Assembly: GCA_048940645.1 (NCBI GenBank)
Contig: JBHLOI010000001.1
Location: forward strand, 32,001 to 96,000
Reading direction: 5' to 3'
Length of the DNA stretch: 64,000 bases
Origin: Promethearchaeota archaeon
GTDB taxonomy: Archaea > Asgardarchaeota > Lokiarchaeia > Sigyniarchaeales > SOKP01
This document shows, piece after piece, positions 46,525 through 63,829 of the stretch (positions within the stretch are counted from its first letter, which is position 1; every line of letters starts with the position of its first letter). Below the pieces are notes generated by a model, which saw only the letters and a list, made by a program, of their open reading frames with translations, was not told where the DNA came from and ran no database searches. The translations under genes were made by a program, and so were the position numbers.

Positions 46525-47466
46525 CTAAATATTAAAGCCATCATCTAAATCATCATACTCCTCTTCAAATCTTTTTAATTCTTCCTCTTTAAGCTTCTTT
46601 TTAAGCTTTTTACGTTCCTTGTGAGTGTAATGCTCATCATAACGCTTAATGTACATTTTTTCATATCTCTCTCTGAGTTTCTCTACGCTTTCTACTTGTC
46701 CAATTTTATCTTGTAAATTATCTTCAAAAAACCAGTTTCTCTTAAACTCTTTTGCTGGAATACCTACATAAATCCATCCATACTTTAATTCTTGACCAAC
46801 CGTAGTGACTGAGTTTGCTGCTAATACACTACGCGTACCAATATGGGTACCTGGCATTACTATAGCATGGGACCCTATACGAACTTCATCTTCTATTATT
46901 GTTTTCCGAATAATAAGCAAATTTCCGATTATAACACTTGATTGGATAATAGCGCCTTGACCTACAACCACATTTTTTCCAAATTCCAAAAATTCCGTGT
47001 CACACCAGCCTTCAAATAAAGAATTAGAAAATTTTGTCTTAACTCCAAAAACCTTAAAACAAATATTATCTAAGAAGGGAAATGGAAATTTATGAGCTAG
47101 CCAAAAAGGAAACCTTTTTATGGTGCTTCTTATACTCCAATACCGATAATCTTTATCAGAAGGGTGCCTAAGAAATGTACCTTCGCGAGGTTTATGAATT
47201 GCATTCACAAATAAAAGAATGATTTTTGCAAAAAATATCGCTGAGAACACTGCTGTAACATACATTCCAAAACATAAAAGAGGTAAAAAGGTGTAAAAGT
47301 GAAGTGGTCTAATGTCATCCCATAACCATTGCCAATATGCCCAAAATATCAGTAAAAGTGGGATAATCGTCGCCCAAATAATTATTATATAAAAGATTAA
47401 ATATCTCTTTCTAACGAGAACCGTTGGTAAAAATGGTCCTACTCGCATAGTATTAGGTACAGACAT
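46525..47466 (-). CDS. 2TM + left-handed beta-helix (hexapeptide) acyltransferase-like protein, module C (Pls C-terminal-domain-like)
   Basis: Two TM helices, HKPREGTF...DYRYW.IR, FGKNVVVGQGAII, IEDEVRIGSHAIVMPGT.IG, WIYVGIPAK. Confidence 0.8.
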   Translation of the reverse strand: MSVPNTMRVGPFLPTVLVRKRYLIFYIIIIWATIIPLLLIFWAYWQWLWDDIRPLHFYTFLPLLCFGMYVTAVFSAIFFAKIILLFVNAIHKPREGTFLRHPSDKDYRYWSIRSTIKRFPFWLAHKFPFPFLDNICFKVFGVKTKFSNSLFEGWCDTEFLEFGKNVVVGQGAIIQSSVIIGNLLIIRKTIIEDEVRIGSHAIVMPGTHIGTRSVLAANSVTTVGQELKYGWIYVGIPAKEFKRNWFFEDNLQDKIGQVESVEKLRERYEKMYIKRYDEHYTHKERKKLKKKLKEEELKRFEEEYDDLDDGFNI

Positions 47467-47472
47467 GGTTAC

Positions 47473-49350
47473 TCACTCCTCTTTAGTTTTTACTAATTTC
47501 TTTTTCTCCTCTTCAATATTTACTTCATGTTCCATTTCAAACTTTGTGGACTCATCCACATCTCTTTTTATAATAAGATCCCTTCTTTCTTCAGCATACT
47601 TATTTTCTTTTAGTTTTATTGCAGGGATACCAAAATAAATCCAATTGGGTTCTAAAACTTGTTTGAATGCAGTAGTAGAGATTGCTCCCACTACAGAGTC
47701 GTGTCCCATAATTGTTCCTGGGGCAACTGTAGTATGCCCTCCTACTAGAACAAAATCATCAAACATCACCCTTTTTATTACCAAATATTTGCCCACAACC
47801 ATAGAAGACATAATTGTAGCTCCTTGACCTATCAAATTTTTCCTCCCAAAATCTATAAATTCTCCATCACACCATGCATCATTAAGATGACTCGAGAAAT
47901 CCATACTTATGCCAAACCATCTGAATGCTAATGCATCTATCCAAGGAAGCGGCGAATTTCTCAAGAGCCATAAAGTTATCTTTTTTAATTCAGTACGCAA
48001 CATCCAAAATTCATAATCGGTATCTCCAATTTGTGCTAAAAATGTACCCTCTTTGGGTTTATGAATAAGATTTACAAGGATTAATATTAATTTACTGAAA
48101 AGTAATATTCCTAAAATAAACAAATATAACATAGAAATAAGGGCGATAGGAAGAAATATAATAGAGCTCAGTTTTACACCCTCCATCGAATATCCATACC
48201 AATATATCGCAACAAGAAGACCACTTAACCAGAAAATTGGGAGATAAACCACTAAGAATTTTATATTAATTCTACTAATAGCACTACTCGTTGTAAAATC
48301 TAAAGCTAAATCTTCATTTGTTAAAGTTGACACATCCTTATATTCAATTTCTTCACTAATATCAATATCTTCCTCGATATCCTCTTCTTCTTCCTCCTTT
48401 TCTTCTTTTATTTCTTTTTCTTCATCATCCTCTTTTGCCTTACCTTTCTTCTTTTTTATATACATCTCTGGATTTTTATTTTTCCTTATATCTTCTTCAC
48501 TTAAACCTAGCCAACTCATTGTCTTTTTCTTAAAAATCTTACGCATAGGAATTCCAAAATAATAATTATGATTTCCTTTAATAACACTATGTTTGGTGCA
48601 AGAAGCTAGGGGTAGCATATAGGCTTCATTAGATATTTCAGATCCTGGACCAATCTGATTCATAGAAGCAAGAGTTACATTATTACCAAGATGAATCTTA
48701 AAATGATTAATATTTCCAAATATTCCAGTGAGAAGATGACTTGCTAAGGTAGAATTAACACCAATATAGCAATTTTTACCAACATCGATAAATTTATCAG
48801 AACCTACGGATTCTTCTATAGTAGTTCCTTTTCCTATTTTACTCGTTCCAATAAATTCATAGAACCAAGTTGATAACCAAGGAAATAAACCTTTAGAAAA
48901 CACATTTTTTCCATACTTTAATATAAAACTTCTTAAGTGGTAGTAATTAGCTGTTTTAGAACGAATATTTCTTGGAATAATTCCATCTTTAGACGGTGAG
49001 ATTTTTTCTGTTATTTTCCAGAAAATTTTAGTAATAATTCCAACAAGGAGTAATCTAACATAATATCCAATGATTAATACTAAAGGCATTGCAAATAATG
49101 CCATTAATGGCTTAATTTCAGTAAATATTGCGAAAAAATTTGTAATATCTAAAAAATAGGGTTTAAAAATGAGAAGTACATATGAGAAGAATATAAATCC
49201 AGGTATTAACCACGAACCATAATAAATTATAAAAAATAAAATAATGTATAGATGAAATTGGAGACTTTGTTCTTCCTTAACGAATTCTTCTCCAGTTTTA
49301 TTATCTGAATCTTCACTGTTTTTTGAATCTTCAGACATTTTTATCATCAA
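47473..49350 (-). CDS. Fused double 2TM + LbH protein, modules A+B (Pls C-terminal-domain-like)
   Basis: Two TM-pair/hexapeptide units separated by a K/E/D-rich linker; PSKDGIIPRN, IGKGTTIE, YFGIP; HKPKEG...FWMLR, WIYFGIPA. Confidence 0.8.
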   Translation of the reverse strand: MMIKMSEDSKNSEDSDNKTGEEFVKEEQSLQFHLYIILFFIIYYGSWLIPGFIFFSYVLLIFKPYFLDITNFFAIFTEIKPLMALFAMPLVLIIGYYVRLLLVGIITKIFWKITEKISPSKDGIIPRNIRSKTANYYHLRSFILKYGKNVFSKGLFPWLSTWFYEFIGTSKIGKGTTIEESVGSDKFIDVGKNCYIGVNSTLASHLLTGIFGNINHFKIHLGNNVTLASMNQIGPGSEISNEAYMLPLASCTKHSVIKGNHNYYFGIPMRKIFKKKTMSWLGLSEEDIRKNKNPEMYIKKKKGKAKEDDEEKEIKEEKEEEEEDIEEDIDISEEIEYKDVSTLTNEDLALDFTTSSAISRINIKFLVVYLPIFWLSGLLVAIYWYGYSMEGVKLSSIIFLPIALISMLYLFILGILLFSKLILILVNLIHKPKEGTFLAQIGDTDYEFWMLRTELKKITLWLLRNSPLPWIDALAFRWFGISMDFSSHLNDAWCDGEFIDFGRKNLIGQGATIMSSMVVGKYLVIKRVMFDDFVLVGGHTTVAPGTIMGHDSVVGAISTTAFKQVLEPNWIYFGIPAIKLKENKYAEERRDLIIKRDVDESTKFEMEHEVNIEEEKKKLVKTKEE

Positions 49351-49464
49351 TTTATTATATTGCGATCTACTAGTAATAATGTTTTTAATCTTTACTTAAA
49401 ATTTCTATTTTATAGTTTTATAGATATATTTGTTATCTTTTAAAGTTATATTATTAACAATTTC

Positions 49465-49908
49465 ATGGATTTTTTTGTGTCTATAATTAAAATATCAGTA
49501 ATTATCATGAATAAAATAAAGCAAATTTGTAAAGATTGCGGAAAGTGTTGCCAAAAAACAGAAATGCTATTATCAGAACAAGATATTTATTTAATTGAAG
49601 AAAAAATTTCAAGTATAAGAAGAGATGAATTTACTGAATTGAATGAAAATGGGATTTATCAATTAAAAAATAGAAATAATCACTGCATATTCTTAGATAT
49701 TGCATCTAAATTATGTACTATATACAAATTCAGACCACAGGGCTGCAGATTCTATCCTATTATTTATGATAATGAGAAAGAAATTTGTATTTATGATGAA
49801 GAATGCCCCAGAGTCTCTTCTTTTTATTTAGTACTTAAAAAGTTTAAAAAAACATGTAATGATATTAAGAAATTTATCAAGATGGAACTAAAAATAGAAT
49901 TTTCCTGA
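49465..49908 (+). CDS. YkgJ-family cysteine-cluster (CxxCxxCC) protein
   Basis: CKDCGKCC, CIFLD, CTIYKFRPQGCRFYP; start probably MNKIK. Confidence 0.85.
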   Translation: MDFFVSIIKISVIIMNKIKQICKDCGKCCQKTEMLLSEQDIYLIEEKISSIRRDEFTELNENGIYQLKNRNNHCIFLDIASKLCTIYKFRPQGCRFYPIIYDNEKEICIYDEECPRVSSFYLVLKKFKKTCNDIKKFIKMELKIEFS

Positions 49909-49911
49909 GAT

Positions 49912-50919
49912 TTAAAATGTCAGAATAGTTTTGATATGATCTTTACTATTTCTATATGAAGTAAAAGCTTCACTAATCCTTTCTAAAGGAAATTTTTTTG
50001 AGATTAAATCTTTTACTTGGATATTTCCTGATTTTAGGCCGTCTATTGCTTTGTTAAATGGACCACATCTACTAGTATATATTGTAATTTCCCGTACAAC
50101 CAAATCTGTGAGATTCACGGGAGTATCTAATCCATGGGTGCTTTTAATATGAATTTTTCCCCTAGTTCTACATGAAGCAATAATATCTGAAAATACATTC
50201 GGATTTCCAGTAGCATCCACAACGATATCTGCACCTAATCCCTTTGTAATTTCCTTAATTTTATTAGGAATATTCTTTACTTTTAGGCGATTTATCAAAT
50301 GTCTTGCACCAAATTTTTTAGCTAATTCAAGTTTTTTATTCGAACCATCTACTACTATTAAATCTAAACCCATTAATAGAGCAACTTGAACTATTAATAA
50401 ACCTAATTTTCCAACTCCAAAAATAACCATATTAGTATCATTATGACTAATAGGCATTGTCTCAAATATCTGATAAGCCGCAGCTAAAGGTTCAATAAAG
50501 GTAGCATCATTAAATGAAATCGAATCAGGTATCTCATGTATTAAGTATGACTCAGCAGTAAGAAATTCTGCGAATCCGCCATTGATATCAATACCTATTG
50601 CTTTTCTCGATAAACATTGAGTAAACATATCTCTCCTACAGTAATAACAATTAAAATCTATATTGCTGTTAATTTCAGACACAACTCTTCTTCCTAACCA
50701 TGAGTTTTCGACATCTTCTCCGACTTTTACAACCTCACCAGCTATTTCATGTCCCAAAATAAGTGGAGTTGGTATTGGAAGAATACCCTTGACAATAGCT
50801 AAATCTGTACCACATATTCCCGCAGCTTTAACCTTAATCAATACTTGAGATTTAGTAAGCTCTGGGATTGGAACTTCTTTCACATTAATCGCTTTTCCAT
50901 CAAATACAGCTGCTTTCAT
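49912..50919 (-). CDS. Zinc-dependent alcohol dehydrogenase (MDR family)
   Basis: GICGTD, LGHEIAG, GGFAE, IEPLAA, IFGVGKLG. Confidence 0.92.
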   Translation of the reverse strand: MKAAVFDGKAINVKEVPIPELTKSQVLIKVKAAGICGTDLAIVKGILPIPTPLILGHEIAGEVVKVGEDVENSWLGRRVVSEINSNIDFNCYYCRRDMFTQCLSRKAIGIDINGGFAEFLTAESYLIHEIPDSISFNDATFIEPLAAAYQIFETMPISHNDTNMVIFGVGKLGLLIVQVALLMGLDLIVVDGSNKKLELAKKFGARHLINRLKVKNIPNKIKEITKGLGADIVVDATGNPNVFSDIIASCRTRGKIHIKSTHGLDTPVNLTDLVVREITIYTSRCGPFNKAIDGLKSGNIQVKDLISKKFPLERISEAFTSYRNSKDHIKTILTF

Positions 50920-51136
50920 AAATAATATAAATAAATTTAGAATTTTTTAAATATTAATAAAACACAATGACATAAATATGCTCAACCAAAATCATAATTT
51001 TGAAATTATAAGATCCAAGTAATCTACTCAAATTATCAATAGCAATTTTACAAAAAAAATTTATGAGTCCTAACCAGTTTTAATATATTTCTTGGTTCCT
51101 TTAATTCAAGTAATAAATTAACAAATAAATTGTGAT

Positions 51137-51679
51137 TTGATGAATAAAAAAGTTTTAATTTGGGAGATTATCGGCATAGTTTTTATTATATTTCTAGGTT
51201 CATTCATGCATTTTCTTTTTGAATTAACAGGATCTTGGCCGCCTATTGGTGCTATAGCAGCAGTAAATGAAAGTACTTGGGAACACTTGAAATTAGGGTA
51301 TTGGCCCTTGATGTTCTTTGCTTTAATTGAATATAAGTTTATAAAAGAAGAGGTTAATAATTTTGCGCTCGCTAAATTTGTGGGCTCCTTATTGATTTTT
51401 GGAGTTATTATCATCTTTTTTTATTCTTATACAGCCATATTAGGAGAGGATTTATTAATACTTGACATATTTAGTTTTATACTTTCAATAATCATAGCTC
51501 AATTAGTAAGTTATAAAATTTTAACAATTAAAAGGCTAAAAAATAGTGTTTCTATCATATCATTGGTTGGACTCGTAATTCTGGGATTGTTATTCATACT
51601 ATTCACCTACTTTCCTCCACAGATATTCCTTTTTCAAGATCCTGTATCTGGTGGCTATGGAATAGTAGAACATCTCTAA
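51137..51679 (+). CDS. Membrane protein (DUF6512-like)
   Basis: GSFMHFLFE, VNESTWEHLKL, FTYFPP..FLFQDP. Confidence 0.75.
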   Translation: MMNKKVLIWEIIGIVFIIFLGSFMHFLFELTGSWPPIGAIAAVNESTWEHLKLGYWPLMFFALIEYKFIKEEVNNFALAKFVGSLLIFGVIIIFFYSYTAILGEDLLILDIFSFILSIIIAQLVSYKILTIKRLKNSVSIISLVGLVILGLLFILFTYFPPQIFLFQDPVSGGYGIVEHL

Positions 51680-51793
51680 TTCAATTTAACTTTTTCTTCT
51701 TTTACTTTTTTTTAACTAAATAGTTATAAACTTAATTTATAAAATTCAAAAAATTAACATAATACAGGAAATTTATTTTAAAAAGTCGATTTT

Positions 51794-53449
51794 ATGAAAT
51801 GTTTTGATTTTGATGAAAGCGTTCAAAAAATATTAAATGATTCTTTTTCTGATATTGAACCTACAAACTGGAAGAGGTGGTTAGAAGTTTCATCCAGTGA
51901 AGAGTTTGAAGAATTATGTTTAAAAAACTCTGGATTATCTTCTATAAATGAAATTTTTAAAAGGGCAACTTCTGAAATTACAGATTCAAGAAGTTTTTCT
52001 ATTAATTTGGAAAATTTTCTTTCTGATTATAACCATTCTTATACTCCAATACTGTGTCATACATCAGGAACAACTGATAGTAAGATTTCAGCTCTTAAGT
52101 GGTTCTTTATGTCAAAAAGTGTAACTCAAAAAAATTGGGCTCCAGGTATGCAAGCTATATTCGAATCAAGCGGATTAGATTCTAAAACTTCTGCTGTAAT
52201 TTTTGTTCCTTCAAGGATTAAATTAGATGGTTTACAATATTTTGAAGGACAAGCATATATTTCACTTTATTCCTCTGAATTTTCTCAAAGAGTAATGCTT
52301 TCAATCATTAAACCAAAAAATTACTCTTTTTATGAATATAAAAATTCTAAAAGTATAGATGTAATCTCTAAAATTTTAGATTTGGATGATATTCGTGTTA
52401 TTTCTGCTCCTGCTTTAACAATTTTAGGATGGGCTGATTTAGAAAAGCTTAGATTGCGATTACAAAAAGCTCTTGATGATTTACCAGATTATAAAAATCC
52501 AATATTAGAGAATCTAATTTCGATAATTAAAAAAGAAGGTATACAAAAAGCATCAAAAATTATTCAAGAAAAACTTTCAGAAAAATTGTCTAAAGCTACA
52601 ATAATATTTAGCATAAGTTCCCTTTCAGAACAGAATTGGGATTTAATAAGGAGGTTTATGAAATGGGAAAAAGGAGAAGAAAGATTTACTAATCTTTATG
52701 TAGCATCTGAGATTGGACCTTTCGCATCTAGTATCTCTAAAGAAGACTTCGAAATATCACGTCAAAATAGGCTGTATGTTTTTCCTTTGACATTACCTGT
52801 TATAGAACACCATAACAAAAAAGAATTAATTTCTCGAGCTTCAAATCAAACAGGCAAGCTATTAGTGTCAAGAATGGATGGTTCTAACGCTCTAATTAAT
52901 ATTGATTTAGGTGATATTATTACTATAAAAGAAAATTATGGATTGCCGCAAATAGACGGAAAAATCATACGATCGAGCTTTAAATTAAAATATGACCTCA
53001 AGTTATCTGAAAAATTTACTATACCTTTCGATTATAGCATTTATGCTGGTGATTTTTTCTCTCTAAACGAATTTATAATTAATCAGCCAAGGAACTTAAT
53101 TAATTGCTTAAAAATTGCTTGTAATTTGGAAGTTGATGCGTTATTATTATTAAAGAATAATAAACAGTCTTGGGATCTAGTATTTCCATCTAATATTCAA
53201 GAAAATTGTAAAAGAAAAGAAAGATTAATAGAATTAATTTCTTCATGTCCGCATCAGGAGGAACTTACTCAAGTAATTATCAATAATTTAATCAATATCG
53301 ATTTTATTGATGATCAGCCAGTTGACTTCTTAGCTACGCGATCAGAAATATTAAATAAAGTTCGTGAAGGACAAGCACCTAAAGGCATATTGAAAAAATG
53401 GCCTTTATATGTAATTATTCCTGACAGCGATGAGAATACCCTTATATAA
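51794..53449 (+). CDS. Divergent stand-alone adenylate-forming enzyme (ANL superfamily; PaaK/LuxE/GH3-like)
   Basis: HTSGTT...K (A3 P-loop), NLYVASEIG (A5-like), GKLLVS, IDLGDII (A7-like), G...R hinge. Confidence 0.65.
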   Translation: MKCFDFDESVQKILNDSFSDIEPTNWKRWLEVSSSEEFEELCLKNSGLSSINEIFKRATSEITDSRSFSINLENFLSDYNHSYTPILCHTSGTTDSKISALKWFFMSKSVTQKNWAPGMQAIFESSGLDSKTSAVIFVPSRIKLDGLQYFEGQAYISLYSSEFSQRVMLSIIKPKNYSFYEYKNSKSIDVISKILDLDDIRVISAPALTILGWADLEKLRLRLQKALDDLPDYKNPILENLISIIKKEGIQKASKIIQEKLSEKLSKATIIFSISSLSEQNWDLIRRFMKWEKGEERFTNLYVASEIGPFASSISKEDFEISRQNRLYVFPLTLPVIEHHNKKELISRASNQTGKLLVSRMDGSNALINIDLGDIITIKENYGLPQIDGKIIRSSFKLKYDLKLSEKFTIPFDYSIYAGDFFSLNEFIINQPRNLINCLKIACNLEVDALLLLKNNKQSWDLVFPSNIQENCKRKERLIELISSCPHQEELTQVIINNLINIDFIDDQPVDFLATRSEILNKVREGQAPKGILKKWPLYVIIPDSDENTLI

Positions 53450-53471
53450 GAAAAAGAAGGAAAAAATGAAT

Positions 53472-53873
53472 TTATTGCCAAACGGCTAGAATTAAACCTG
53501 CGATTATGAATCCAATCAAGTAAAACCCATATTCTAATAGAAAAAGCTTTACTCCTCTATCATTAAAATTATTTTGGTTAATTCCTATAGTTGCAACAAA
53601 TCCTACCCATAAAAGGAAACTTATTATTAAAGCTGATAAAATATCATTCATACCAGTGAGATCAATGATAACCTCAATCATTAGAACTGACACAAAACTC
53701 GTTGGAATCATTATAATAGTATCTCTAATAATTTTTGATTTGGGTTCACTCTCTTTACCAACTAATTTGAGCCATATGTTTCCAAACACAAATGGAAAAT
53801 ACCAGAAAAAGTGAATCAGAAAATAAATAATTGCAACCACGATAACAGCTAACCAATTAATCATCAAAGCCAT
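53472..53873 (-). CDS. DUF1761 family membrane protein
   Basis: INWLAVIV...WY...FG..WLKLVG, four TM helices. Confidence 0.78.
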   Translation of the reverse strand: MALMINWLAVIVVAIIYFLIHFFWYFPFVFGNIWLKLVGKESEPKSKIIRDTIIMIPTSFVSVLMIEVIIDLTGMNDILSALIISFLLWVGFVATIGINQNNFNDRGVKLFLLEYGFYLIGFIIAGLILAVWQ

Positions 53874-53977
53874 TTATTTTCACTTTTTAAATTATAATTT
53901 GTAATTAAAAGGAATATAAATGAACGATATTTATTTCTTATTTGTTTAAATTATAAATTACAATAAGTGGATTACAC

Positions 53978-54451
53978 ATGAAAGATAAATTTAATTTAGT
54001 GGGAACAAAAATAAAACCATTTAAATTACCAAACTCGAGAGGCGAAAGTAATAGCATTCAGGACTTTTTAGGTCATAGTGTAGTAATTGTTTTGTTCCGG
54101 AGTAAAAATTGACCCTATGCTAAAGCCCATGCAGGAAAACTCGGTGATGATTACGATAAATTCAAAGAATATAATGCAATATTATACACAATCTTACCAA
54201 ATGATCTTGAAAGTGCTAGGAATTTTGAAGCCAATTTTGCCAAAAAAAAATTTCCAATTTATTATGATGCCACAAAAAAGGTAAATAAAATGTTAAAACA
54301 GGAAGTAAAACCTTTAAAACTGGGTAGAATGCCAGCACTTCTCATAATCGACGAACAAGGGATTATTAGATATGCATATTACAGTGATTCGATGAGTGAT
54401 ATACCAGACAATGAGGAAATTTTTGAAGTTCTCAAAAGTTTTAGTAAATAA
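53978..54451 (+). CDS. Peroxiredoxin-like (AhpC/TSA) selenoprotein, in-frame TGA = Sec45
   Basis: Read by hand: ATG 53978...VVIVLFRSKN-TGA(54110-54112)-PYAKAH...FPIYYD...GRMPALLIIDEQGIIRYAY...IPDNEEI...TAA 54449-54451; 157 codons; thioredoxin-fold motifs on both sides of the TGA. Confidence 0.85.
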
Positions 54452-54454
54452 ATC

Positions 54455-54527
54455 TGATTTGGTTCGAATAATATATGAAAAATGATTGAATTTTATTCGA
54501 TTAAGTTAGCCACACTTTACCAAATCA
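54455..54527 (+). other. 3'-UTR stem-loop downstream of the selenoprotein gene (candidate SECIS-like element)
   Basis: tgatttggt/accaaatca outer stem and tcgaataa/ttattcga inner stem enclosing ATGAAAAATGATTGAA; canonical SECIS geometry not confirmed. Confidence 0.35.
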
Positions 54528-54571
54528 ATCTATTTTTATTTATTTATATTTTGTCTTAGATGAATTACGGA

Positions 54572-56713
54572 TTAATATTTAAATTTTCTTCTGATGGGAA
54601 TCATGGAAATGAAACTTGCTATCGCAAGTAAAATGAATAGACTATTAATTATAATAATCGGAGCACTAATTTCTTTTATAACTGTAACCTCGGCAAAAGC
54701 AACATTACCTGCTTTATCTAATACATAAAATAAGATATTAATTGGACCATTTCCATATTTATTCCATTCAGTTTGGTCTATTGTTCCAGTGTTACTGAAT
54801 AATGGGATATTGGTTAATCCGTTATCTAATGTATACCATATTGAATCTAAATTCGATTCGATTATTGTAATTTCAAATATAGGAGGTTTATTTCCAAATA
54901 CTTCATTTTCATTAGGAGAAATAATAGTAACGGTTGGATTAATTAGATCTTTTATAACTGTTACTTCAGCAAAAGCAACATTACCTGCTTTATCTAATAC
55001 GTAAAATCTAAGATTGATTGTCCCATTACCATATTTATTCCATTCTGATTGGTCAATAATTCCATTAAGTAAACTATTTGATATATTCGTTATTCCATCA
55101 TCTAAAGTGTACCACATTAAATCAATATTAGATTCTATTACAGTGATATCAAATTCAGGAGATGTTTTACCGAACAATTCATTTTCAAGTGGAGAATTTA
55201 TTGTAATGAGTGGTTCTATTGTGTCTTTATTAATAGTAATTTCAGAATAACTTGAATTTCCCAATGTGTCATTAATATAAACTCGAAGATTCAGAGGGCC
55301 ATCCTCTTTTTTATCCCATTCTATTTGATCTATAGTTCCTGTTAGCCCTGAGAAAGTAATATTAGTAATTCCTCCATCAATAGTATACCAAGTAGTATCT
55401 ATTGAAGTTCCATAAATTGATATATCAAAATCGGGTGCAACATTACCAAAAACATCATTTTGAACAGGAGAATTTATCATAATTGTTGGCGTTAGCAAGC
55501 TTTTAACAACCAGCTCATATGGATATGGTTGATCATTGACATTAGGATCAAAATCGGAAGGAAGTCTCCTATACATAAGATATTGTCCATCAGGGGAATA
55601 AATTGGAAACTCATCGTTATATGGACCTATTTCTGTTAGTGGGACAATGCCAGTGCCATTCGTTTTTATCCTAAATAAATGCATATTGCCATCTAAACGG
55701 TTACTTGCCATTATCAGCTCCTTCCCATCGATAGGATTGTAATTCCACCGTCTGTTAAAGTATACATCATCAATAACTGTTCTTTCATTGCTCCCATCTA
55801 TATTAATTGCATATATACTCCCATTACTATGCCATATAACTGTATTTCCATCCGCTAATACTAGGGTCTGAGTTCTCTTCGAAAAAGATTTAATTGTATT
55901 CCGCTCTGAACCGTCTACATTGCATACCCTGAGAGTGGTAGGATTATTCCAATATGTTGCATGCCCCCATAAAAGCTTACTACCATTTGGGGCCATTCCT
56001 AATGTAAATGAATAATCGGGATAGGATCTGTCTTGCCAATTATCGGTACCGTCATCATTACAAACATATGATCTGTACCATCCATTACCGTTATGAGCAG
56101 AAAAATATACTAGATTTGTTCCTGGAATAAACATTCCAGTGTATACCGTTCCTTCATTTATCCATAAAGGATTCGATGATGTTGTTCTTATTCCATTAGT
56201 ATGAGTAAACGTAACCTGAGTGAGAGAGGTTCCATCAAATCTTATTTTCCAGAGTTCTCTCCTTCCATAGTACGAACTTGCGCTAGCTTCCTCAAATCTT
56301 ATTGAGAAAAGAATCCAATTATCTTTCCAATCATATAGACTATTATAAGCTGCCCCAGTATATATCAGTTGGTGGTTCGTGAGTTGTGCGCTGTTAGGAT
56401 TTTTGTCGGCAACCCAGAGTTCACAGTTCCATACCTGTTGATTTTGAGATTTTATATATGCTACTTTGGTTCCATCTGGTGACCAAATATGATCAGAAAT
56501 AGTCTCCCCAATTATGTATTCATTTGATCCCTTTACTTCTAAATTAGGATGAGTGCTAATATTTAGATTTCCTTGATCATTACTAAAGTCTATAATAAAA
56601 ATAAAGGAGAATCCTAAAATGATGCCTAAAATAGAAGAAATTATCTTCTTTTTTTGGTTAATTTTTCTCAATTTGGTTTGTTGAAAAATATGGATTATAA
56701 TATATTTTGTCAA
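54572..56713 (-). CDS. Cell-surface protein: TolB/PD40-like beta-propeller plus three Ig-like repeats and a C-terminal TM anchor
   Basis: WSPDGTKVAY, YSPDGQYL; three repeats of P.I.I.SP..N..FG...P.F.I...WYT.D.G.TN...G.IDQ.EW; hydrophobic C-terminus ending RRKFKY. Confidence 0.82.
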   Translation of the reverse strand: MTKYIIIHIFQQTKLRKINQKKKIISSILGIILGFSFIFIIDFSNDQGNLNISTHPNLEVKGSNEYIIGETISDHIWSPDGTKVAYIKSQNQQVWNCELWVADKNPNSAQLTNHQLIYTGAAYNSLYDWKDNWILFSIRFEEASASSYYGRRELWKIRFDGTSLTQVTFTHTNGIRTTSSNPLWINEGTVYTGMFIPGTNLVYFSAHNGNGWYRSYVCNDDGTDNWQDRSYPDYSFTLGMAPNGSKLLWGHATYWNNPTTLRVCNVDGSERNTIKSFSKRTQTLVLADGNTVIWHSNGSIYAINIDGSNERTVIDDVYFNRRWNYNPIDGKELIMASNRLDGNMHLFRIKTNGTGIVPLTEIGPYNDEFPIYSPDGQYLMYRRLPSDFDPNVNDQPYPYELVVKSLLTPTIMINSPVQNDVFGNVAPDFDISIYGTSIDTTWYTIDGGITNITFSGLTGTIDQIEWDKKEDGPLNLRVYINDTLGNSSYSEITINKDTIEPLITINSPLENELFGKTSPEFDITVIESNIDLMWYTLDDGITNISNSLLNGIIDQSEWNKYGNGTINLRFYVLDKAGNVAFAEVTVIKDLINPTVTIISPNENEVFGNKPPIFEITIIESNLDSIWYTLDNGLTNIPLFSNTGTIDQTEWNKYGNGPINILFYVLDKAGNVAFAEVTVIKEISAPIIIINSLFILLAIASFISMIPIRRKFKY

Positions 56714-56809
56714 GTTAATATTTAAATTTACTTTCAGAAATAAAAAAGATTAGAGATTAGGAATTTCCTCTTGATGAGAAGTTGACTAAATATAACTATT
56801 TTTAATTTT

Positions 56810-57331
56810 TTAAGTGGATTTTAACCCTATTGACGGTCCTACTTGTATGAATTTATATATAAGTTGACCTTCCCCATTAAATACATCCCAACCTTTATTA
56901 CTTTCAAAACCATGTGCAGATAAAAAATTTGTTGAAAATTTGCTCCTTGCAGACTGTACCATTTGATTAATAACCTCTATTTTCATTTCTTTATTTTCAA
57001 CTAATTCCAATTTACCCTGCATTGAAATAAAATAATAACTGCTAAGATCTGGTTCAAATTTTTCTATTGAAATGCAAACATTAGGGTTATTTGAAAGAAT
57101 TTCCTTCTTTTTGCCATAATCAGTAAAATGAAAATATAAAATATCATCAATAAAAGCGTATTGGAAAGGTGAAATATATGGATATTCATTATCTATGAAA
57201 GCAATTCTACATAAATTTTGAGAATTGATTGCTTCTTTTATCTCTCGTTCATTCATTTTTGGTAATTTAATAATTCTAATACTTAACACCAATTTGATTT
57301 TAATGGGATAAAAAACGTGGATCATATTCAA
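56810..57331 (-). CDS. Pyridoxamine 5'-phosphate oxidase-like flavin-binding protein
   Basis: LCRIAF...YPYISP..Y, YFH..YGKK...L..NPNVC; true start probably downstream of the track start. Confidence 0.82.
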   Translation of the reverse strand: MNMIHVFYPIKIKLVLSIRIIKLPKMNEREIKEAINSQNLCRIAFIDNEYPYISPFQYAFIDDILYFHFTDYGKKKEILSNNPNVCISIEKFEPDLSSYYFISMQGKLELVENKEMKIEVINQMVQSARSKFSTNFLSAHGFESNKGWDVFNGEGQLIYKFIQVGPSIGLKST

Positions 57332-58196
57332 GAATTTTTTTTGCTTTTAAAGCACTCCGTTCTTTATCTTTTATTTCTAACATAAGGTCAAAATCATAAT
57401 TTTTTGTTTTATTAATAAAGGTTTTAAAATGCTCGATTTGAATATTATCAGCATGACTTGGATGTCCTTTTATTTTATGTTGAGAGCTATAGTGTACGAT
57501 AGGCAAGCCATCTCGTTTATTCCATGTTTGTGTGAATTTGCTGAATACATCTTCAAAAATCTCACCTGTATTTAAACATTCATGATGATAAACATCAAAA
57601 ACAATAGGAATAAAAATTTCTTCATAAATTTCTAGACAATCTGCTAAATTAAAACTTTTATCATCATTTTCAATAACATATCGATTTTTAATTTTAGCTG
57701 AAAGCTTATTATATCTCTCAATAAATCTTTCTTTACTTCCCTTTTTATCGCCATAAATCCCCCCAATATGGGTCATAATTTTAGCTGTACAATCTAAATT
57801 CATTAAATCTAAAACATCAACATGATATTCCAACTCCTTTATACTTTTCTTAACAACCTTATCGTTTTTAGAATTTAGTACCGTATATTGGCCAGGATGC
57901 ATAGAGATTCTCATATTATACTTCATAATAAATTTCCCTATTTCATTAAACTTTTCTTTGAAGTAATCTTGCCATTCAAATTTCATAATAGGATGAGATG
58001 CAAATGGTATTAAATCAGATGTAAGTCTAAAGAAAAAAATTTTGTTATTTTTATTATATTCAAGAATCTGTTGTAAACAGTTTAAATTTCCATTTACAGT
58101 TTCAATAAATCTTTCTTCGGAATAATTTTTCAAACGAAAAGTTCTACTACTTTTGCATGCTAATGTAAGGTTTATGCAAGGATAACCTATCTTCAT
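57300..58196 (-). CDS. uvsE: UV DNA damage endonuclease
   Basis: IGYPCIN, FFRLTSDLIPFASHP, RISMHPGQY, HIGG.YGDK, IENDD, FDVYHH, HYS, MLEIKDKE. Confidence 0.95.
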   Translation of the reverse strand: MKIGYPCINLTLACKSSRTFRLKNYSEERFIETVNGNLNCLQQILEYNKNNKIFFFRLTSDLIPFASHPIMKFEWQDYFKEKFNEIGKFIMKYNMRISMHPGQYTVLNSKNDKVVKKSIKELEYHVDVLDLMNLDCTAKIMTHIGGIYGDKKGSKERFIERYNKLSAKIKNRYVIENDDKSFNLADCLEIYEEIFIPIVFDVYHHECLNTGEIFEDVFSKFTQTWNKRDGLPIVHYSSQHKIKGHPSHADNIQIEHFKTFINKTKNYDFDLMLEIKDKERSALKAKKILEYDPRFLSH

Positions 58197-58247
58197 TATA
58201 TCTCGATCTTAAAATTAAATAATTAAAATAGAAATTCTTTAATTCAT

Positions 58248-59090
58248 TCACACTTTTTTATCTTTTCGCCTTGTATAGAGTTCTTCATATTTCTTTCGTA
58301 ATTCCTCTATATCTTGCTCTTGTTCACTTATTATCTCTTCCAATCCATCTTCAAAGAACACATCTTCCTTATATTTTTTTGCCGGTGCGCCGAGATAAAC
58401 CCAACCTTCTTCTAATTCTTGACCAATGGTTGTGAGAGAACTAGCAGCAAGAACTGAATTCTTCTTCATATATGTTCCTGGCATTACAACTGAATGAGCA
58501 CCAATTCTAACATTATCTTCTATTATTGTTTTTCTAATTATAAAGAGATTTCCGATAATGACTGTAGATTGAATAACGCTAGCTTGGCCAACTACAATAT
58601 TCCTTCCAAAATCAATGAATTCAGTATCAACCCAGCCTTCAAATAGTGAGTTTGAAAATTTTGTTTTAACCCCAAACAATTTAAAGCAAATGTTATCTAA
58701 GAAAGGTAGGGGGAATTTATGTGCCATCCATGCGGGCCACTTTTTAATTGTATTTCTAATACTCCAATATCTATAGTCCTTATCGGATGGGTCTCTAAGG
58801 AAGATTCCTTCCCTTGGTTTGTGAAAGATATTCACAATAATGAGTAGAATTTTAGTAAAAAACAGAGATACAAATACTAAAGAGAGATATATTACAAATA
58901 TCAAAGCGGGAAGGAAAATTATGAAATGGATAAATTTACTGTTATATAAGAAGTTCCAATACCACCAAAATTCAAATTGGATAATAAAAATACTGATCCA
59001 AATCTGGAATATATAAAAAAGCAAATATTTTTTTTTTACTAATACATTAGATGTAAACGGCCCAGCTTTAAGATATGCAGGAACAGACAT
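58248..59090 (-). CDS. 2TM + LbH acyltransferase-like protein, module C (second copy)
   Basis: Close paralog of 46525..47466 (MSVP...GPF, HKPREG, DKDYRYWSIR, FGVKTKFSNSLFEGW). Confidence 0.8.
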   Translation of the reverse strand: MSVPAYLKAGPFTSNVLVKKKYLLFYIFQIWISIFIIQFEFWWYWNFLYNSKFIHFIIFLPALIFVIYLSLVFVSLFFTKILLIIVNIFHKPREGIFLRDPSDKDYRYWSIRNTIKKWPAWMAHKFPLPFLDNICFKLFGVKTKFSNSLFEGWVDTEFIDFGRNIVVGQASVIQSTVIIGNLFIIRKTIIEDNVRIGAHSVVMPGTYMKKNSVLAASSLTTIGQELEEGWVYLGAPAKKYKEDVFFEDGLEEIISEQEQDIEELRKKYEELYTRRKDKKV

Positions 59091-59995
59091 TATAATTCTT
59101 CCTCCTTATTGTTATTTACTAGTTCTTTCTTATCATCGTCTATATTAACCTCATGTTTAATTTCATATGTAATTTCTTCTTCAACATCCTTGATAGTTAT
59201 TTTATCACGTCTTTGTTCTGCATATTTATTTGGTTTATATTTCATGGCAGGGAGACCAACATATATCCAGCCTGGCTCAATAAAATGGTTAAAATTTGTA
59301 TTAGTAAATGCACCCGTTACCGATTCGGCTCCCAAAAATGTACCTGGTGCTATATTAGAAACACCTCCAGCAACGGTATAATCTCCAAATATGACCTTTT
59401 TTATTATTAAATATTTCCCAACAACCATTGAACTCATCACTACGCAACCTTGACCAATCGTAACATTTCTTCCAAAATCAATGAAATCAGTATCTACCCA
59501 TGCATCTTGAAGGTGGCTTGAGAAATCTATTTTAACTCCAAACCATCTAAATCCCCACATAACAATCCAAGGTAATGGGCTATTATTCATAAGCCATAAT
59601 GCCAACTTCTTTAATTCGACTCGTAGTCTCCAAAACTCAAAATCTTTATCTCCTTTTTCCGCCCTAAAAACACCTTGCCGAGGTTTATGTACCATATTAA
59701 CGATTAATAGAAATGCCTTGCTAAAAATAGCAACTCCAAAGATAAATATAAAATATAAAATAAATAACCAAAATGGTAGTAGAAACATAGTTATAATCCA
59801 ATTGTCAATAAGAGTAGCTACATCAAAAAAAACAGCAACTGCCATATATCCACTAACCCATAGAATTGGAATATATATAGCTAGAAATTTGATGCTAATT
59901 CTGCTAATAGCACTACTAGTTATAAAATCTATAGTATAGTCCTTCTTATTAACTTGAAGATCTTTGCTTTTTTCTGTTGGATTGCTACTAGTCAT
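59090..59995 (-). CDS. 2TM + LbH acyltransferase-like protein, stand-alone module B
   Basis: Matches the C-terminal half of 47473..49350 (DF.TSSAISRI.IKFL, FW.LR.ELKK, HEVNI). Confidence 0.8.
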   Translation of the reverse strand: MTSSNPTEKSKDLQVNKKDYTIDFITSSAISRISIKFLAIYIPILWVSGYMAVAVFFDVATLIDNWIITMFLLPFWLFILYFIFIFGVAIFSKAFLLIVNMVHKPRQGVFRAEKGDKDFEFWRLRVELKKLALWLMNNSPLPWIVMWGFRWFGVKIDFSSHLQDAWVDTDFIDFGRNVTIGQGCVVMSSMVVGKYLIIKKVIFGDYTVAGGVSNIAPGTFLGAESVTGAFTNTNFNHFIEPGWIYVGLPAMKYKPNKYAEQRRDKITIKDVEEEITYEIKHEVNIDDDKKELVNNNKEEEL

Positions 59996-60890
59996 TTACT
60001 CTCCCTCTTTGTTTTGAATTTTTCTCAATTTTTTTAATTTTAAGCTTTTCTGCTCTCTCAAGATCTTTTTCAGACACTTTTAAGTAATCCATCAATCGTT
60101 TTTTAAAAATCCGTCTTAATGGTGCTCCAAAATAGTAATTATTACCTTTTAAGAAGTTATGTTTAGTTGCACCTGTTATAGGTAAAAACCAAGAATTATC
60201 ATTTACTTCACTACCAGGGCCAATACAATTGAAAGCCGCTGTAGTGACATTATTTCCAATCTTTACTTTAAAATAAGTTATATTTCCAAAAATTCCTTCA
60301 ACAGCATGGGAACTGAAAGCGCCATTTACCCCAAAATAACAATTATTTCCTATTGAAATATATCTATCTGCACCAACATTCTCTTCGAGGGTTGTTCCCT
60401 TTCCTATCCAATTAGCTCCTATGAAATTATAAAGCCAATTTATTAGCCATGGAAAAGGTCCTCTTATAACAGCGTTTTTCGGATATTTAATTACAAAACT
60501 ACGTATATGATAGAAATTTAAAGTTTTACTGGGAACATTTCGAGGGATTATACCATCTTTGGATGGTGATATTTTTTCAGTGGTCCTCCAAATCCATCTT
60601 GTAATCAGCCCTACAAACAAAATATGAATTAAATAACATGACACTATTATTAAAGGCATAAAAATTGAAGCTAAAAGAGGTTCTAATTGTGTGAAGAGTA
60701 ATATAAAATTGCTGATATCTAAAAAATTTGGTAAATAAAAAAGCATGACATATACCATAAATATAATCGCGGGGATTAGAAAAGACCCGAAATAAATAAT
60801 GAAAAATAAAAATAAATACCAATGAAACTGTAAATTGATTTCTTCTTTTATGATTTCGTTATTGGTACTACTTTCAGATGAATTTTCCAT
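59988..60890 (-). CDS. 2TM + LbH acyltransferase-like protein, stand-alone module A
   Basis: Matches the N-terminal half of 47473..49350 (LQFH.Y, PSKDGIIPRN, YHIRSF, IGKGTT.EE.VG). Confidence 0.8.
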   Translation of the reverse strand: MENSSESSTNNEIIKEEINLQFHWYLFLFFIIYFGSFLIPAIIFMVYVMLFYLPNFLDISNFILLFTQLEPLLASIFMPLIIVSCYLIHILFVGLITRWIWRTTEKISPSKDGIIPRNVPSKTLNFYHIRSFVIKYPKNAVIRGPFPWLINWLYNFIGANWIGKGTTLEENVGADRYISIGNNCYFGVNGAFSSHAVEGIFGNITYFKVKIGNNVTTAAFNCIGPGSEVNDNSWFLPITGATKHNFLKGNNYYFGAPLRRIFKKRLMDYLKVSEKDLERAEKLKIKKIEKNSKQRGRVND

Positions 60891-61074
60891 CTTCTATTTC
60901 ATTAATGCTTATTTAGTTAAAATGTAATAAGTAGAATTACTTTTGTTATTTTCAGTGGTTCTTTAATTATTATGACTATTGAATTTAAAGATTATCAAAC
61001 ACTTGATTTTAGGAATAATATAAATATAAAAAATAAAAGTTTAAATATTATTTTTTATTAATTTTTAAAATTCA

Positions 61075-61920
61075 TTATGATTTCTTTTCTTTTTTAGGAA
61101 ACCAAGGGATAAATGAGCTAGTTCTTCTTTTATATTCAGCATATTCTTCATTACCTTCAAATCTTTTATCTAGAAGTTTTACACCAGATACATTTATTAT
61201 TTGAAATGTAATATAAGCTGGTCCTATAAAGGTTAAAAAGCCAAATGGAACTGCCAAAGCAATTATAAAAAGACCCCACCATTGAGTTACTTCTCCAAAA
61301 TAGTTTGGATGCATAGAATATTTCCATACGCTCTTCGTCATAATTTTTCCTTGATTTGCTGGATCCTTTAAGAATTTATAAAGAGAAAAGTCTGCTATAG
61401 TTTCAAAGAAAAATCCTATCAGCCATATAATGGCTCCTAACCATAAAGTTATTCCTCCAAAGTCTAATAGGCTGACTACAGGAGGATTTTCACTTATGTT
61501 TGTAAACCAAACTGGAATATCAACTAAAAAAACAATAATTCCTTGAAACATATATACTTTGAAGAAACTTTTCAAAGCTACATTTGTTTTCCATCTTTCT
61601 CGCATTGCTTTATAACGATAATCTTCAGGTTTTCCCCTATTCCTAATATATACATAGCTTGCTAATCTTATTGCCCAAACTAAAACTAGGCTAGTTGCTA
61701 TAATTTGCCGAATACAAAAAGATGATGTTAGTATTATATTAAGGATTAAACTCGTTATAGACACCACAAAATAAGCAGGACCATAAAAAATATCCATAAT
61801 TGCATTATTCTTCTTTACGGTTCCTACAATGAAAGCAATAAATATGTAAATAAAAAGAGCTATAGCTGAATAACCAATTATTAATAACATAGTCTCAATA
61901 TTTGTCATAATAAAGCACAA
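61075..61920 (-). CDS. DUF1295 family membrane protein (steroid 5-alpha-reductase-like)
   Basis: WAIRL, EDYRY, ETIAD, WKYSMHPNYFGE..QWWG, Y.EYKRRTSSFIPW. Confidence 0.88.
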   Translation of the reverse strand: MCFIMTNIETMLLIIGYSAIALFIYIFIAFIVGTVKKNNAIMDIFYGPAYFVVSITSLILNIILTSSFCIRQIIATSLVLVWAIRLASYVYIRNRGKPEDYRYKAMRERWKTNVALKSFFKVYMFQGIIVFLVDIPVWFTNISENPPVVSLLDFGGITLWLGAIIWLIGFFFETIADFSLYKFLKDPANQGKIMTKSVWKYSMHPNYFGEVTQWWGLFIIALAVPFGFLTFIGPAYITFQIINVSGVKLLDKRFEGNEEYAEYKRRTSSFIPWFPKKEKKS

Positions 61921-62008
61921 TTAAACTGTAAGATTATAATAACTAGTCAGAAAATACGAGAATATTTATAGTTTGTATTTATTAATTAAAGATTTTTATA
62001 AATAGGTT

Positions 62009-63829
62009 CTAAAGCTTTTCCTTTTTATCTTCTTCAATATTTACTTCATGCTCTACCTTAAATTTAACCTCTTCGTCAACATTTTTTTTCATGATAATAT
62101 CTCTTCGGGATTCAGCATATTTATTTGGCTTTAATTTAATTGCAGGAATTCCTATATAAATAAAGCCAGGTTCCAAAATTTGGTTATAAGTTGTGGTTGA
62201 GATGGCTCCTACCATTGTATCTTTTCCAACAATAGTACCTGGAGCAATAGTGGTATGTCCTCCAACAAGAGCATAATCATCAAGAAATATTTTTGAAATT
62301 ACGAGATATTTCCCTACAACCATTGAACTCATCAAGGTTGCACCCTGACCCACAACAACCTTTCTCCCTAAGTATAAAAATTCTCCATCACACCATGCAT
62401 CATATAAATAGCTCGAGAAATCCATTTTTATTCCAAACCATTTGAAAGCAATGACATCTGCCCATGGAATGGGGCTATTTCTCATGAGCCATAAAACAAT
62501 TTTTTTTAATTCAGTACGCAACATCCAAAATTCATAATCAGTATCTCCTATCTCAGCCAGAAACGTACCCTCTTTGGGTTTATGAATTAAATTAACCAAA
62601 AGTAGAAAAAGCTTGCTATATAAGAAACATCCAAGGATAAAAATAAAATATAATGCAAATAATATAACTGGTAAAAAAAAAGTAAACATAATCAGATTTT
62701 TAACGAAAAATGTGTAGGTATAAAATAACACTGCTACTTGTAACCCGCTTATCCAAAAAATGGGTAGATAAACTGCTAAAAATTTTATATTTATTCGACT
62801 TATAGCTGAGCTAGTTGTAAAATCAAGATTATAATCTACATTTTCATATTCAATTGCATTTTGTTCATTCACTTTTGGTTGGTTTGAATCTACTTCTTTT
62901 TTCTCTTGCTTTCTTTTAGTTTTTTTATTCTTATTTTTAGACTTCTTAACTTCGATATTTTCTAAAAGAATTTTATTTTTCTCTAAATCCTCAGGAGTTA
63001 AATCTAAATATCTCATAACTTTTTTATCAAAGATTTTCCTTAAAGGAATACCAAAATAATAATGATGATCTCCCTTTACAACATTGTGTTTAGTAGCGGA
63101 CGCTAAAGGTAAGAGATATGAATTACTATGAATCATTGTACCAGGTCCAATTTGATTATTTCCCGCAATAGTAATATTATCACCAGCTTGTATTTGAAAA
63201 TATGAAATATTCCCCCATACTCCGTCTATTAAATGTGTAGCTAATGTAGAATTAACTCCGATATAACAATTTTTTCCGACAATTGCGAACTTTTCGTTAC
63301 CAACAGATTCTTCAAAAGTGGTCCCTTTTCCAATAACCATTGAACCTACATAATTATATAACCAATTTGATAACCATGGAAATAATCCTTTAACAAATGT
63401 ATTTTTAGGATACTTCATAAGGAATGATCTTATATGATAATATTTCTCAGTTTTGCTTTTAATATTCCGGGGGATTATTCCATTTTTAGATGGTGATTTA
63501 CTTTCAGTATAAGCCCATATTATACGTGTGATTAAAGCAATGAAATATAATCGAATAAGATAACATACAATTAAAACGAGTGGCATTGTAAGTAAAGCCA
63601 TCAAGGGTTCGATTTCTGTAAAAATTGCTATAAAATTAGAAATTTCAAGGAAGTTAGGTAAAAAATATAAGAAAAAGTATAACATAAAAACTGTGATTGG
63701 TACTAAAAATGAACCTAGATAATTTGTTAATAATATCATAAATGATAATATCAGGGAATAACTCATTTCTTCCCTTTGAACTTCAGGTTTTAAAATTTTG
63801 GATGCTTTGCTTTTTTTTTTCGAATCCAT
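62009..63829 (-). CDS. Fused double 2TM + LbH protein, modules A+B (second fused copy)
   Basis: Full-length paralog of 47473..49350 with a Lys-rich linker. Confidence 0.8.
   Translation of the reverse strand: MDSKKKSKASKILKPEVQREEMSYSLILSFMILLTNYLGSFLVPITVFMLYFFLYFLPNFLEISNFIAIFTEIEPLMALLTMPLVLIVCYLIRLYFIALITRIIWAYTESKSPSKNGIIPRNIKSKTEKYYHIRSFLMKYPKNTFVKGLFPWLSNWLYNYVGSMVIGKGTTFEESVGNEKFAIVGKNCYIGVNSTLATHLIDGVWGNISYFQIQAGDNITIAGNNQIGPGTMIHSNSYLLPLASATKHNVVKGDHHYYFGIPLRKIFDKKVMRYLDLTPEDLEKNKILLENIEVKKSKNKNKKTKRKQEKKEVDSNQPKVNEQNAIEYENVDYNLDFTTSSAISRINIKFLAVYLPIFWISGLQVAVLFYTYTFFVKNLIMFTFFLPVILFALYFIFILGCFLYSKLFLLLVNLIHKPKEGTFLAEIGDTDYEFWMLRTELKKIVLWLMRNSPIPWADVIAFKWFGIKMDFSSYLYDAWCDGEFLYLGRKVVVGQGATLMSSMVVGKYLVISKIFLDDYALVGGHTTIAPGTIVGKDTMVGAISTTTYNQILEPGFIYIGIPAIKLKPNKYAESRRDIIMKKNVDEEVKFKVEHEVNIEEDKKEKL

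Follow-up and report, generated by a model that had tools for sequence, protein, structure and literature searches.

Six genes on the minus strand of a 64,000-nucleotide stretch of DNA (the window) from a Promethearchaeota archaeon (assembly GCA_048940645.1, contig JBHLOI010000001.1, positions 32,001 to 96,000) encode proteins that join two transmembrane (TM) helices to a hexapeptide left-handed beta-helix (LbH), and the locus raises the question of which membrane enzyme they form. The original prediction held that three unit types, A, B and C, make up a machinery resembling the polymerase part of the poly-amino-acid synthetases Pls and PosA. In this study, we describe a real, family-wide system that seems undescribed in the literature searched, where no paper on an Asgard membrane hexapeptide acetyltransferase was found. 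With a probability of about 0.55, we favour a membrane-bound, heterotrimeric acyltransferase that would depend on acyl-CoA and have a single catalytic cleft and a membrane-held, lipid-type acceptor.

The six open reading frames were found to encode eight [2 TM + LbH] units arranged in the order A-B-C, in agreement with the original prediction. One cassette consists of a fused A-B gene of 625 amino acids with an acidic linker (47473..49350; TTG start, ATG at 49347), whose module A carries His205 in the motif LASHL, and of a gene for a 313-residue subunit C (46525..47466) located 6 nt downstream. Another is fully split, with subunit A (300 aa, 59988..60890), subunit B (301 aa, 59090..59995) and subunit C (280 aa, 58248..59090) encoded by genes that overlap by 8 nt (A/B) and 1 nt (B/C, TAATG), and a purine-rich, Shine-Dalgarno-like stretch lies upstream of each overlapping start. 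A second fused A-B gene of 606 amino acids (62009..63829; His199 in the motif LATHL) has no C of its own; such orphan AB fusions are common among relatives, and the gene probably borrows a C subunit from elsewhere. Scans of the region for sigma-70 promoters and terminators gave matches at chance level, the sigma-70 model being unsuited to archaea.

Each unit contains two hydrophobic segments, a P-x(2-3)-G linker with Y/W-x-x-R, hexapeptide repeats and a Y-x-G-x-P end; the W..R-like linker expected in all units is thus present as Y/W-x-x-R, but reads Y-H-x-R in module A. The LbH fold was supported by Pfam, with Hexapep matched in five of the six genes, and by fold search (Z 13-15). Subunit A of the split cassette comprises two TM helices, linker helices and an LbH domain with a hairpin loop. 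The units fall into three distinct types, as predicted: identity is 49-56% within A, 52-68% within B and 61% within C, and it drops to 16-23% between A and B or C and to 33-35% between B and C.

Linkage of the units was counted in about 70 loci from relatives. Another unit directly followed 113 of the 115 A units (47 were fused to B, 48 had an adjacent B, 11 were followed by another A and 7 by a B-like unit), and the median gaps between neighbouring units were 1 and 4 nt. B units directly followed an A in 95 of 96 cases and C units followed a B in 72 of 78, but as the loci were picked around A matches these B- and C-side figures are inflated, and the A-to-B count is the one to rely on. Twenty-three of the 96 B units had no adjacent C, on the basis of which assemblies of A and B alone may exist. 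In a draw of 301 genomes, 65 of 68 family genomes and one outside genome had both canonical A and canonical B, and the three family genomes without B also lacked canonical A. Independent occurrence of A, B and C, which the original prediction had named as evidence against itself, was seen in neither the linkage nor the presence/absence counts. The module was present in all 105 genomes searched of this Loki family and in 9/9 of the sister family, where two single-contig genomes (4.3 and 6.0 Mb) have 5 and 7 units. Separately, a genome from another Asgard group has a canonical A-B-C cassette, on a contig of 7.9 kb (G241:C82), which may reflect transfer or binning contamination.

Six family genomes, this one and five relatives, were scanned in full and contained 8-17 units each, every one of which fits an A-B-(C) set, a permuted second cassette type (C-A fused, then B') or an A'+D+E set. 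This genome has three further units outside the window, a lone A' (C60:44255-45067) and a D+E pair (C47:23583-25166), which we regard as a third, dispersed triad because a natural A'-D fusion (P0123) is followed by E; in one relative (G210), A', D and E are missing as a set. Two proteins (P0121, from Promethearchaeota, and P0122) carry C-A-B' in one chain. All fusions (A-B, the commonest, C-A, C-A-B' and A'-D) keep a single cyclic order, A -> B -> C -> A. Since arrays such as A-A-A-B-C and AB, AB, AB+C exist, A or AB can evidently be multiplied over a common C. Conservation of the TM residues and of the linkers close to them is strong and differs by type.

The loop of the beta-helix distinguishes the types further. 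In the cassettes, A carries LASHL, SSHAV or LATHL, B carries MSSM and C carries QSS or QST. Among relatives, the His was found in 115/115 A, 7/7 A' and 7/7 D units and in all single-gene relatives from other Asgard groups, whereas none of the 96 B, 78 C and 7 E units has it. The original statement that only A keeps the His is accordingly true of the A-B-C cassettes but not of the whole family, where D (and A') also carry it. One site per trimer is no family-wide rule, since two His are present in the A'-D-E set and more in the single- and double-gene relatives. Certain two-unit fusions (P0137, P0138, P0140, P0161, P0164, P0210; Helarchaeota where named) have a His in both units.

In LacA, a trimer with active sites between subunits, His115 is the general base and its mutation removes 90% of activity (PMC12775004). 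Alignment to the family profile placed His195 of the split subunit A (codon 60306..60308) in register with this residue; it also aligns with the His of the Pls C3 motif QTHLF, and is a putative catalytic base. Profile mapping also set the conserved K243 and R259 of A at LacA K166 and R180, and its conserved E169-E170 near N85. A has a bulky L236-P237 where LacA has G159-A160; B, which is without the His, keeps small-residue turns there (G228-A229) and at the G141-S142 position (G210-G211). Judged from this sequence mapping, the catalytic cleft would be completed between A and B, and such a cleft fits A-B being the usual fusion. LacA and Maa are the nearest solved LbH proteins and also share the C-terminal G-x-P-x-R; however, they are soluble homotrimers with three equal sites and no TM helices, and the match spans residues about 105-258 only. 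The Asgard proteins, by comparison, have two TM helices per unit and three unequal types, with the inserted-loop His of the LacA/Maa type in A and not in B or C.

The closest overall resemblance is to the C1-C3 repeats of Pls and PosA, which likewise consist of two TM helices, a strand, two helices and a five-turn LbH with a hairpin insert, in three unlike repeats with one constant His (PMC10522769). Atlas fold matching of the A model gave TM-scores of 0.55-0.58 over 203-221 residues against Pls/PosA-type models, versus 0.42 over 147 residues against a sugar O-acetyltransferase, and HHalign of the modules to the Pls repeats gave 97.6-99.2%. The unit profile retrieved many proteins of 1300-1500 residues with three matches each over TM2, linker and beta-helix, and for unit D the three best plasmid matches were Pls-type NRPSs, two of them annotated as such. 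The Asgard module and the Pls/PosA C1-C3 repeat are homologous, and the homology extends to the TM region. The predicted Pls-like architecture over TM, linker and beta-helix was therefore borne out by fold match and HHalign, and the better fit to sugar O-acetyltransferases that had been named beforehand as a contrary outcome was not observed. Among solved structures, none covering the TM part or Pls C1-C3 was found by sequence or fold search.

The relationship is not one of descent from a complete synthetase. Against TIGR02353, the genes scored 22-42 bits each (cut-off 423), A alone gave no match, and none of 11 genomes exceeded the cut-off; as foreseen, neither an adenylation nor a thiolation (carrier) domain was detected on any of the six frames. 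The proposed one-to-one equivalence of A, B and C with C1-C3 had to be abandoned: all three types match C1 best, the Pls repeats form their own clade (support 99/97) and an AU test rejected a clade of A with C3 (p=0.0024), in FastTree and IQ-TREE trees that are unrooted and built on subsampled rows. The same results rule out descent of the cassettes by fission of a Pls. What the two systems share is an asymmetry, since 65 of 87 three-repeat proteins follow the pattern xxH, with one constant His, in C3, and A aligns to Pls C3 with the His and a Lys in register. The C3 signature HLFEDR is replaced in Asgard by H-x-V-x-G-I-F-G-N, the His alone being common to both. The Asgard system further differs from Pls/PosA in being spread over one to three genes and in having three types that arose separately. 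In the Pls/PosA-type proteins of the set P0162-P0270, the His is constant in C3 alone (QTHLFEDR); it aligns with LacA His115 and is hence a candidate catalytic base.

Another independent triplication is represented by a distinct clade of TM-LbH proteins that have three repeats but no adenylation or thiolation domain (P0129, P0133, P0139, P0143, P0146, P0132; Elusimicrobiota where named), their His lying mostly in the middle repeat. Three-repeat relatives of this kind (bacterial where named) have SDRs, an acyl-CoA ligase and glycosyltransferases as neighbours or fusion partners.

Within the trees, the Asgard units form a clade of their own in which B and C are sisters. Several other Asgard groups have single His-bearing genes, the sister family has pairs of A with one B/C-type gene, and this family has three genes; the C-terminal extensions of the sister-family subunits contained no extra Pfam domain. 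On the unrooted tree, the direction that suggests itself is one of specialisation built up inside Asgard, from a single gene to two, to three and to fusions. As the clades are separate and the gene series is internal to Asgard, the one-site layout would be convergent with Pls, and a single phylum would display the whole course from a His-bearing single gene to a full fusion.

The identity of the donor bears most directly on function. Pls requires a carrier-bound thioester (PMC4668381). Searches with PF00550 (PP-binding) and PF01648 (PPTase) gave no match in this genome (89.6% complete) or in its near-complete relatives G204 (98%) and G276 (100%), and the matches present in G147 and G213 lie away from the cassettes. 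One frame of 3819 codons in the sister-family Asgard genome G213 (G213:C1:871000-875400) combines four carrier domains with a PPTase domain and is FAS/PKS-like. The window contains a gene for a GH3/ANL-like adenylating enzyme (51794..53449, plus strand; motifs TSGTT, YVASEIG and DLGD; no Pfam match), which recurs within 19 loci on the strand opposite the cassettes; 40 of 53 family genomes have it, against 0 of 8 others searched. It was not found in the remaining 13 family genomes, among them the 100%-complete G147 with its two A-B-C cassettes, or in 5/5 sister-family genomes, and these genomes with cassettes but without the gene rule it out as an obligatory missing adenylation domain. Acyl-CoA would be the economical donor, because three genomes contain no carrier or PPTase and many genomes with cassettes lack the GH3-like enzyme. 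On the same grounds polymer synthesis, one of the activities first proposed, was not upheld; the other, lipid or glycan acylation, now seems the likelier of the two.

Among NCBIfam models, YvoF (NF058585) matched the A-containing genes best, at 23-53 bits; with a cut-off of 300 bits, membership of that family was rejected. YvoF is a membrane-associated LbH acetyltransferase that modifies isoprenoid ether lipids with acetyl-CoA, in archaea too (PMC9179154; PMC12345273), and is the nearest characterised carrier-free relative, but it is a single 172-position family without a TM hairpin, and no subunit specialisation is reported for it in the literature consulted. Recurrent neighbours of the cassettes were a YkgJ/CxxCxxCC protein (33 loci, the most frequent; here at 49465..49908, plus strand, divergent from the 625-aa AB gene), a Zn-dehydrogenase (26 loci), a C-N hydrolase (about 20 loci, directly after C and co-oriented; in this genome on another contig) and a DUF1295/steroid 5-alpha-reductase-like membrane protein (18 loci). 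The last is encoded at 61075..61920 on the minus strand, co-oriented between the 606-aa AB gene and the split cassette, and is at most a candidate member of the system. These neighbours are not constant and may owe their recurrence to shared ancestry, and in the survey of loci no gene was constant enough to name the substrate.

In the mechanism that we propose, A, B and C would join 1:1:1 as a pseudo-symmetric trimer with six TM helices and three cytoplasmic LbH domains, in which one of the three inter-subunit clefts would be catalytic. A would give the general-base His and B most likely a matching face of small residues for the coenzyme, a division that would account for A-B being the commonest fusion; C would close the ring, and one C could serve several paralogues. 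The donor would be acyl-CoA rather than a carrier-bound thioester, and the acceptor a hydroxyl or amine at the membrane surface, most likely of a lipid or lipid-linked molecule. Granted this enzyme, a lipid-type acceptor is favoured on indirect grounds, in that the TM bundle would hold the site at the membrane, YvoF acts on ether lipids, and relatives adjoin SDRs, an acyl-CoA ligase and glycosyltransferases. Multiple cassettes and tandem A-A-A-B-C arrays would represent paralogues differing in specificity.

Three [2 TM + LbH] repeats occur as one unit in the form of three genes or natural fusions, and their physical assembly is predicted. AlphaFold2 modelling of the natural triple P0121 gave a pTM of 0.77, which may owe something to LbH trimers memorised by the network, and a pLDDT of 76; its modules are built like those of the published PosA model (PMC10522769). 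Prediction of an A+B+C+CoA complex scored 0.86 versus 0.77 for a control with B replaced, a result that we take neither way. The CA1-CA2-CAL gamma-CA module of plant complex I, itself an LbH heterotrimer with one potentially active interface (PMC7447434), shows that the principle is not new; it is an analogy only, as that module belongs to a zinc family with three-His sites and its subunits have no TM hairpin.

Several other readings of the cassettes were weighed. The same heterotrimer and chemistry might serve an acceptor that is soluble or passes through the membrane (an amine, polyol, sugar or peptide), the TM bundle acting as an anchor or coupling acylation to export. Galactoside and maltose O-acetyltransferases are indeed the closest solved structures to the LbH part, the invariant acidic E169-E170 of A lies near the LacA N85 position, and the C-N hydrolase following C resembles half of an acylation/deacylation pair; yet that hydrolase is on another contig in this genome, and the strong, type-specific conservation of the TM residues and linkers goes beyond what a plain anchor needs. 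We regard this as the most serious competitor, though a rather unlikely one. Doubtful, in our judgement, is a carrier-free, Pls-like polymerase and exporter that would use amino- or hydroxy-acyl-CoA (or GH3-like adenylates) to thread a polyamide or polyester through the six-helix bundle. Homology to C1-C3 over the whole module speaks for it, as do the like one-His-in-three asymmetry, the register of His and Lys between A and C3 and the nearby GH3-like gene, and to our knowledge the characterised enzymes with the full module are polymerases only, with no simple transferase among them, which counts against an acyltransferase. Weighing more heavily on the other side are the missing adenylation, carrier and PPTase domains, the genomes in which the GH3-like gene is absent, the replaced HLFEDR signature and the separate origin of A, B and C from the Pls repeats.

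Some LbH proteins have lost activity, as in dynactin p25/p27, eIF2B and possibly the complex I gamma-CA module, and a non-catalytic or sensing membrane scaffold would accommodate the His-less B and C, the bulky L236-P237 of A and the universal multi-copy retention in the family; in the fold search, moreover, inactive LbH folds reached scores as high as those of enzymes. An invariant His in every A unit and single-gene relative, together with K243 and R259 at the LacA positions, makes such a scaffold improbable. Most LbH acyltransferases are homotrimers, LacA included (PMC12775004), and the operon could in principle hold three independent homotrimeric paralogues. B and C would then have no catalytic His, and the repeated A-B, C-A and C-A-B' fusions, the overlapping genes and the matching presence/absence leave very little room for this arrangement. 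The heterotrimeric acyl-CoA-dependent acyltransferase thus remains our preferred reading.

If it is right, proteins now labelled hypothetical or isoleucine-patch protein perform a core membrane function of the Loki lineage, whose lipid chemistry is an open question (PMC9385802). The cassettes would also offer a compact model, free of a carrier, for the condensation region of Pls/PosA, whose structure has not been solved, and they point to the His of C3 QTHLF as the predicted catalytic base of Pls. Should the polymerase and exporter apply instead, which we think doubtful, Lokiarchaea would make an undescribed surface polymer, with swappable A subunits picking the monomer.

Two minor observations concern other genes. 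Inside the clusters of one locus (L004:10956-11774) and seven related loci, near the UvsE endonuclease gene, though not in the cluster of the window, lies a gene whose motif suggests a heliorhodopsin. In the window itself, a peroxiredoxin-like frame of 157 codons (53978-54451, plus strand) contains no Cys and has an in-frame TGA at codon 45 (SKN-U-PYA); it is open if TGA is read as Sec, and is a candidate selenoprotein.
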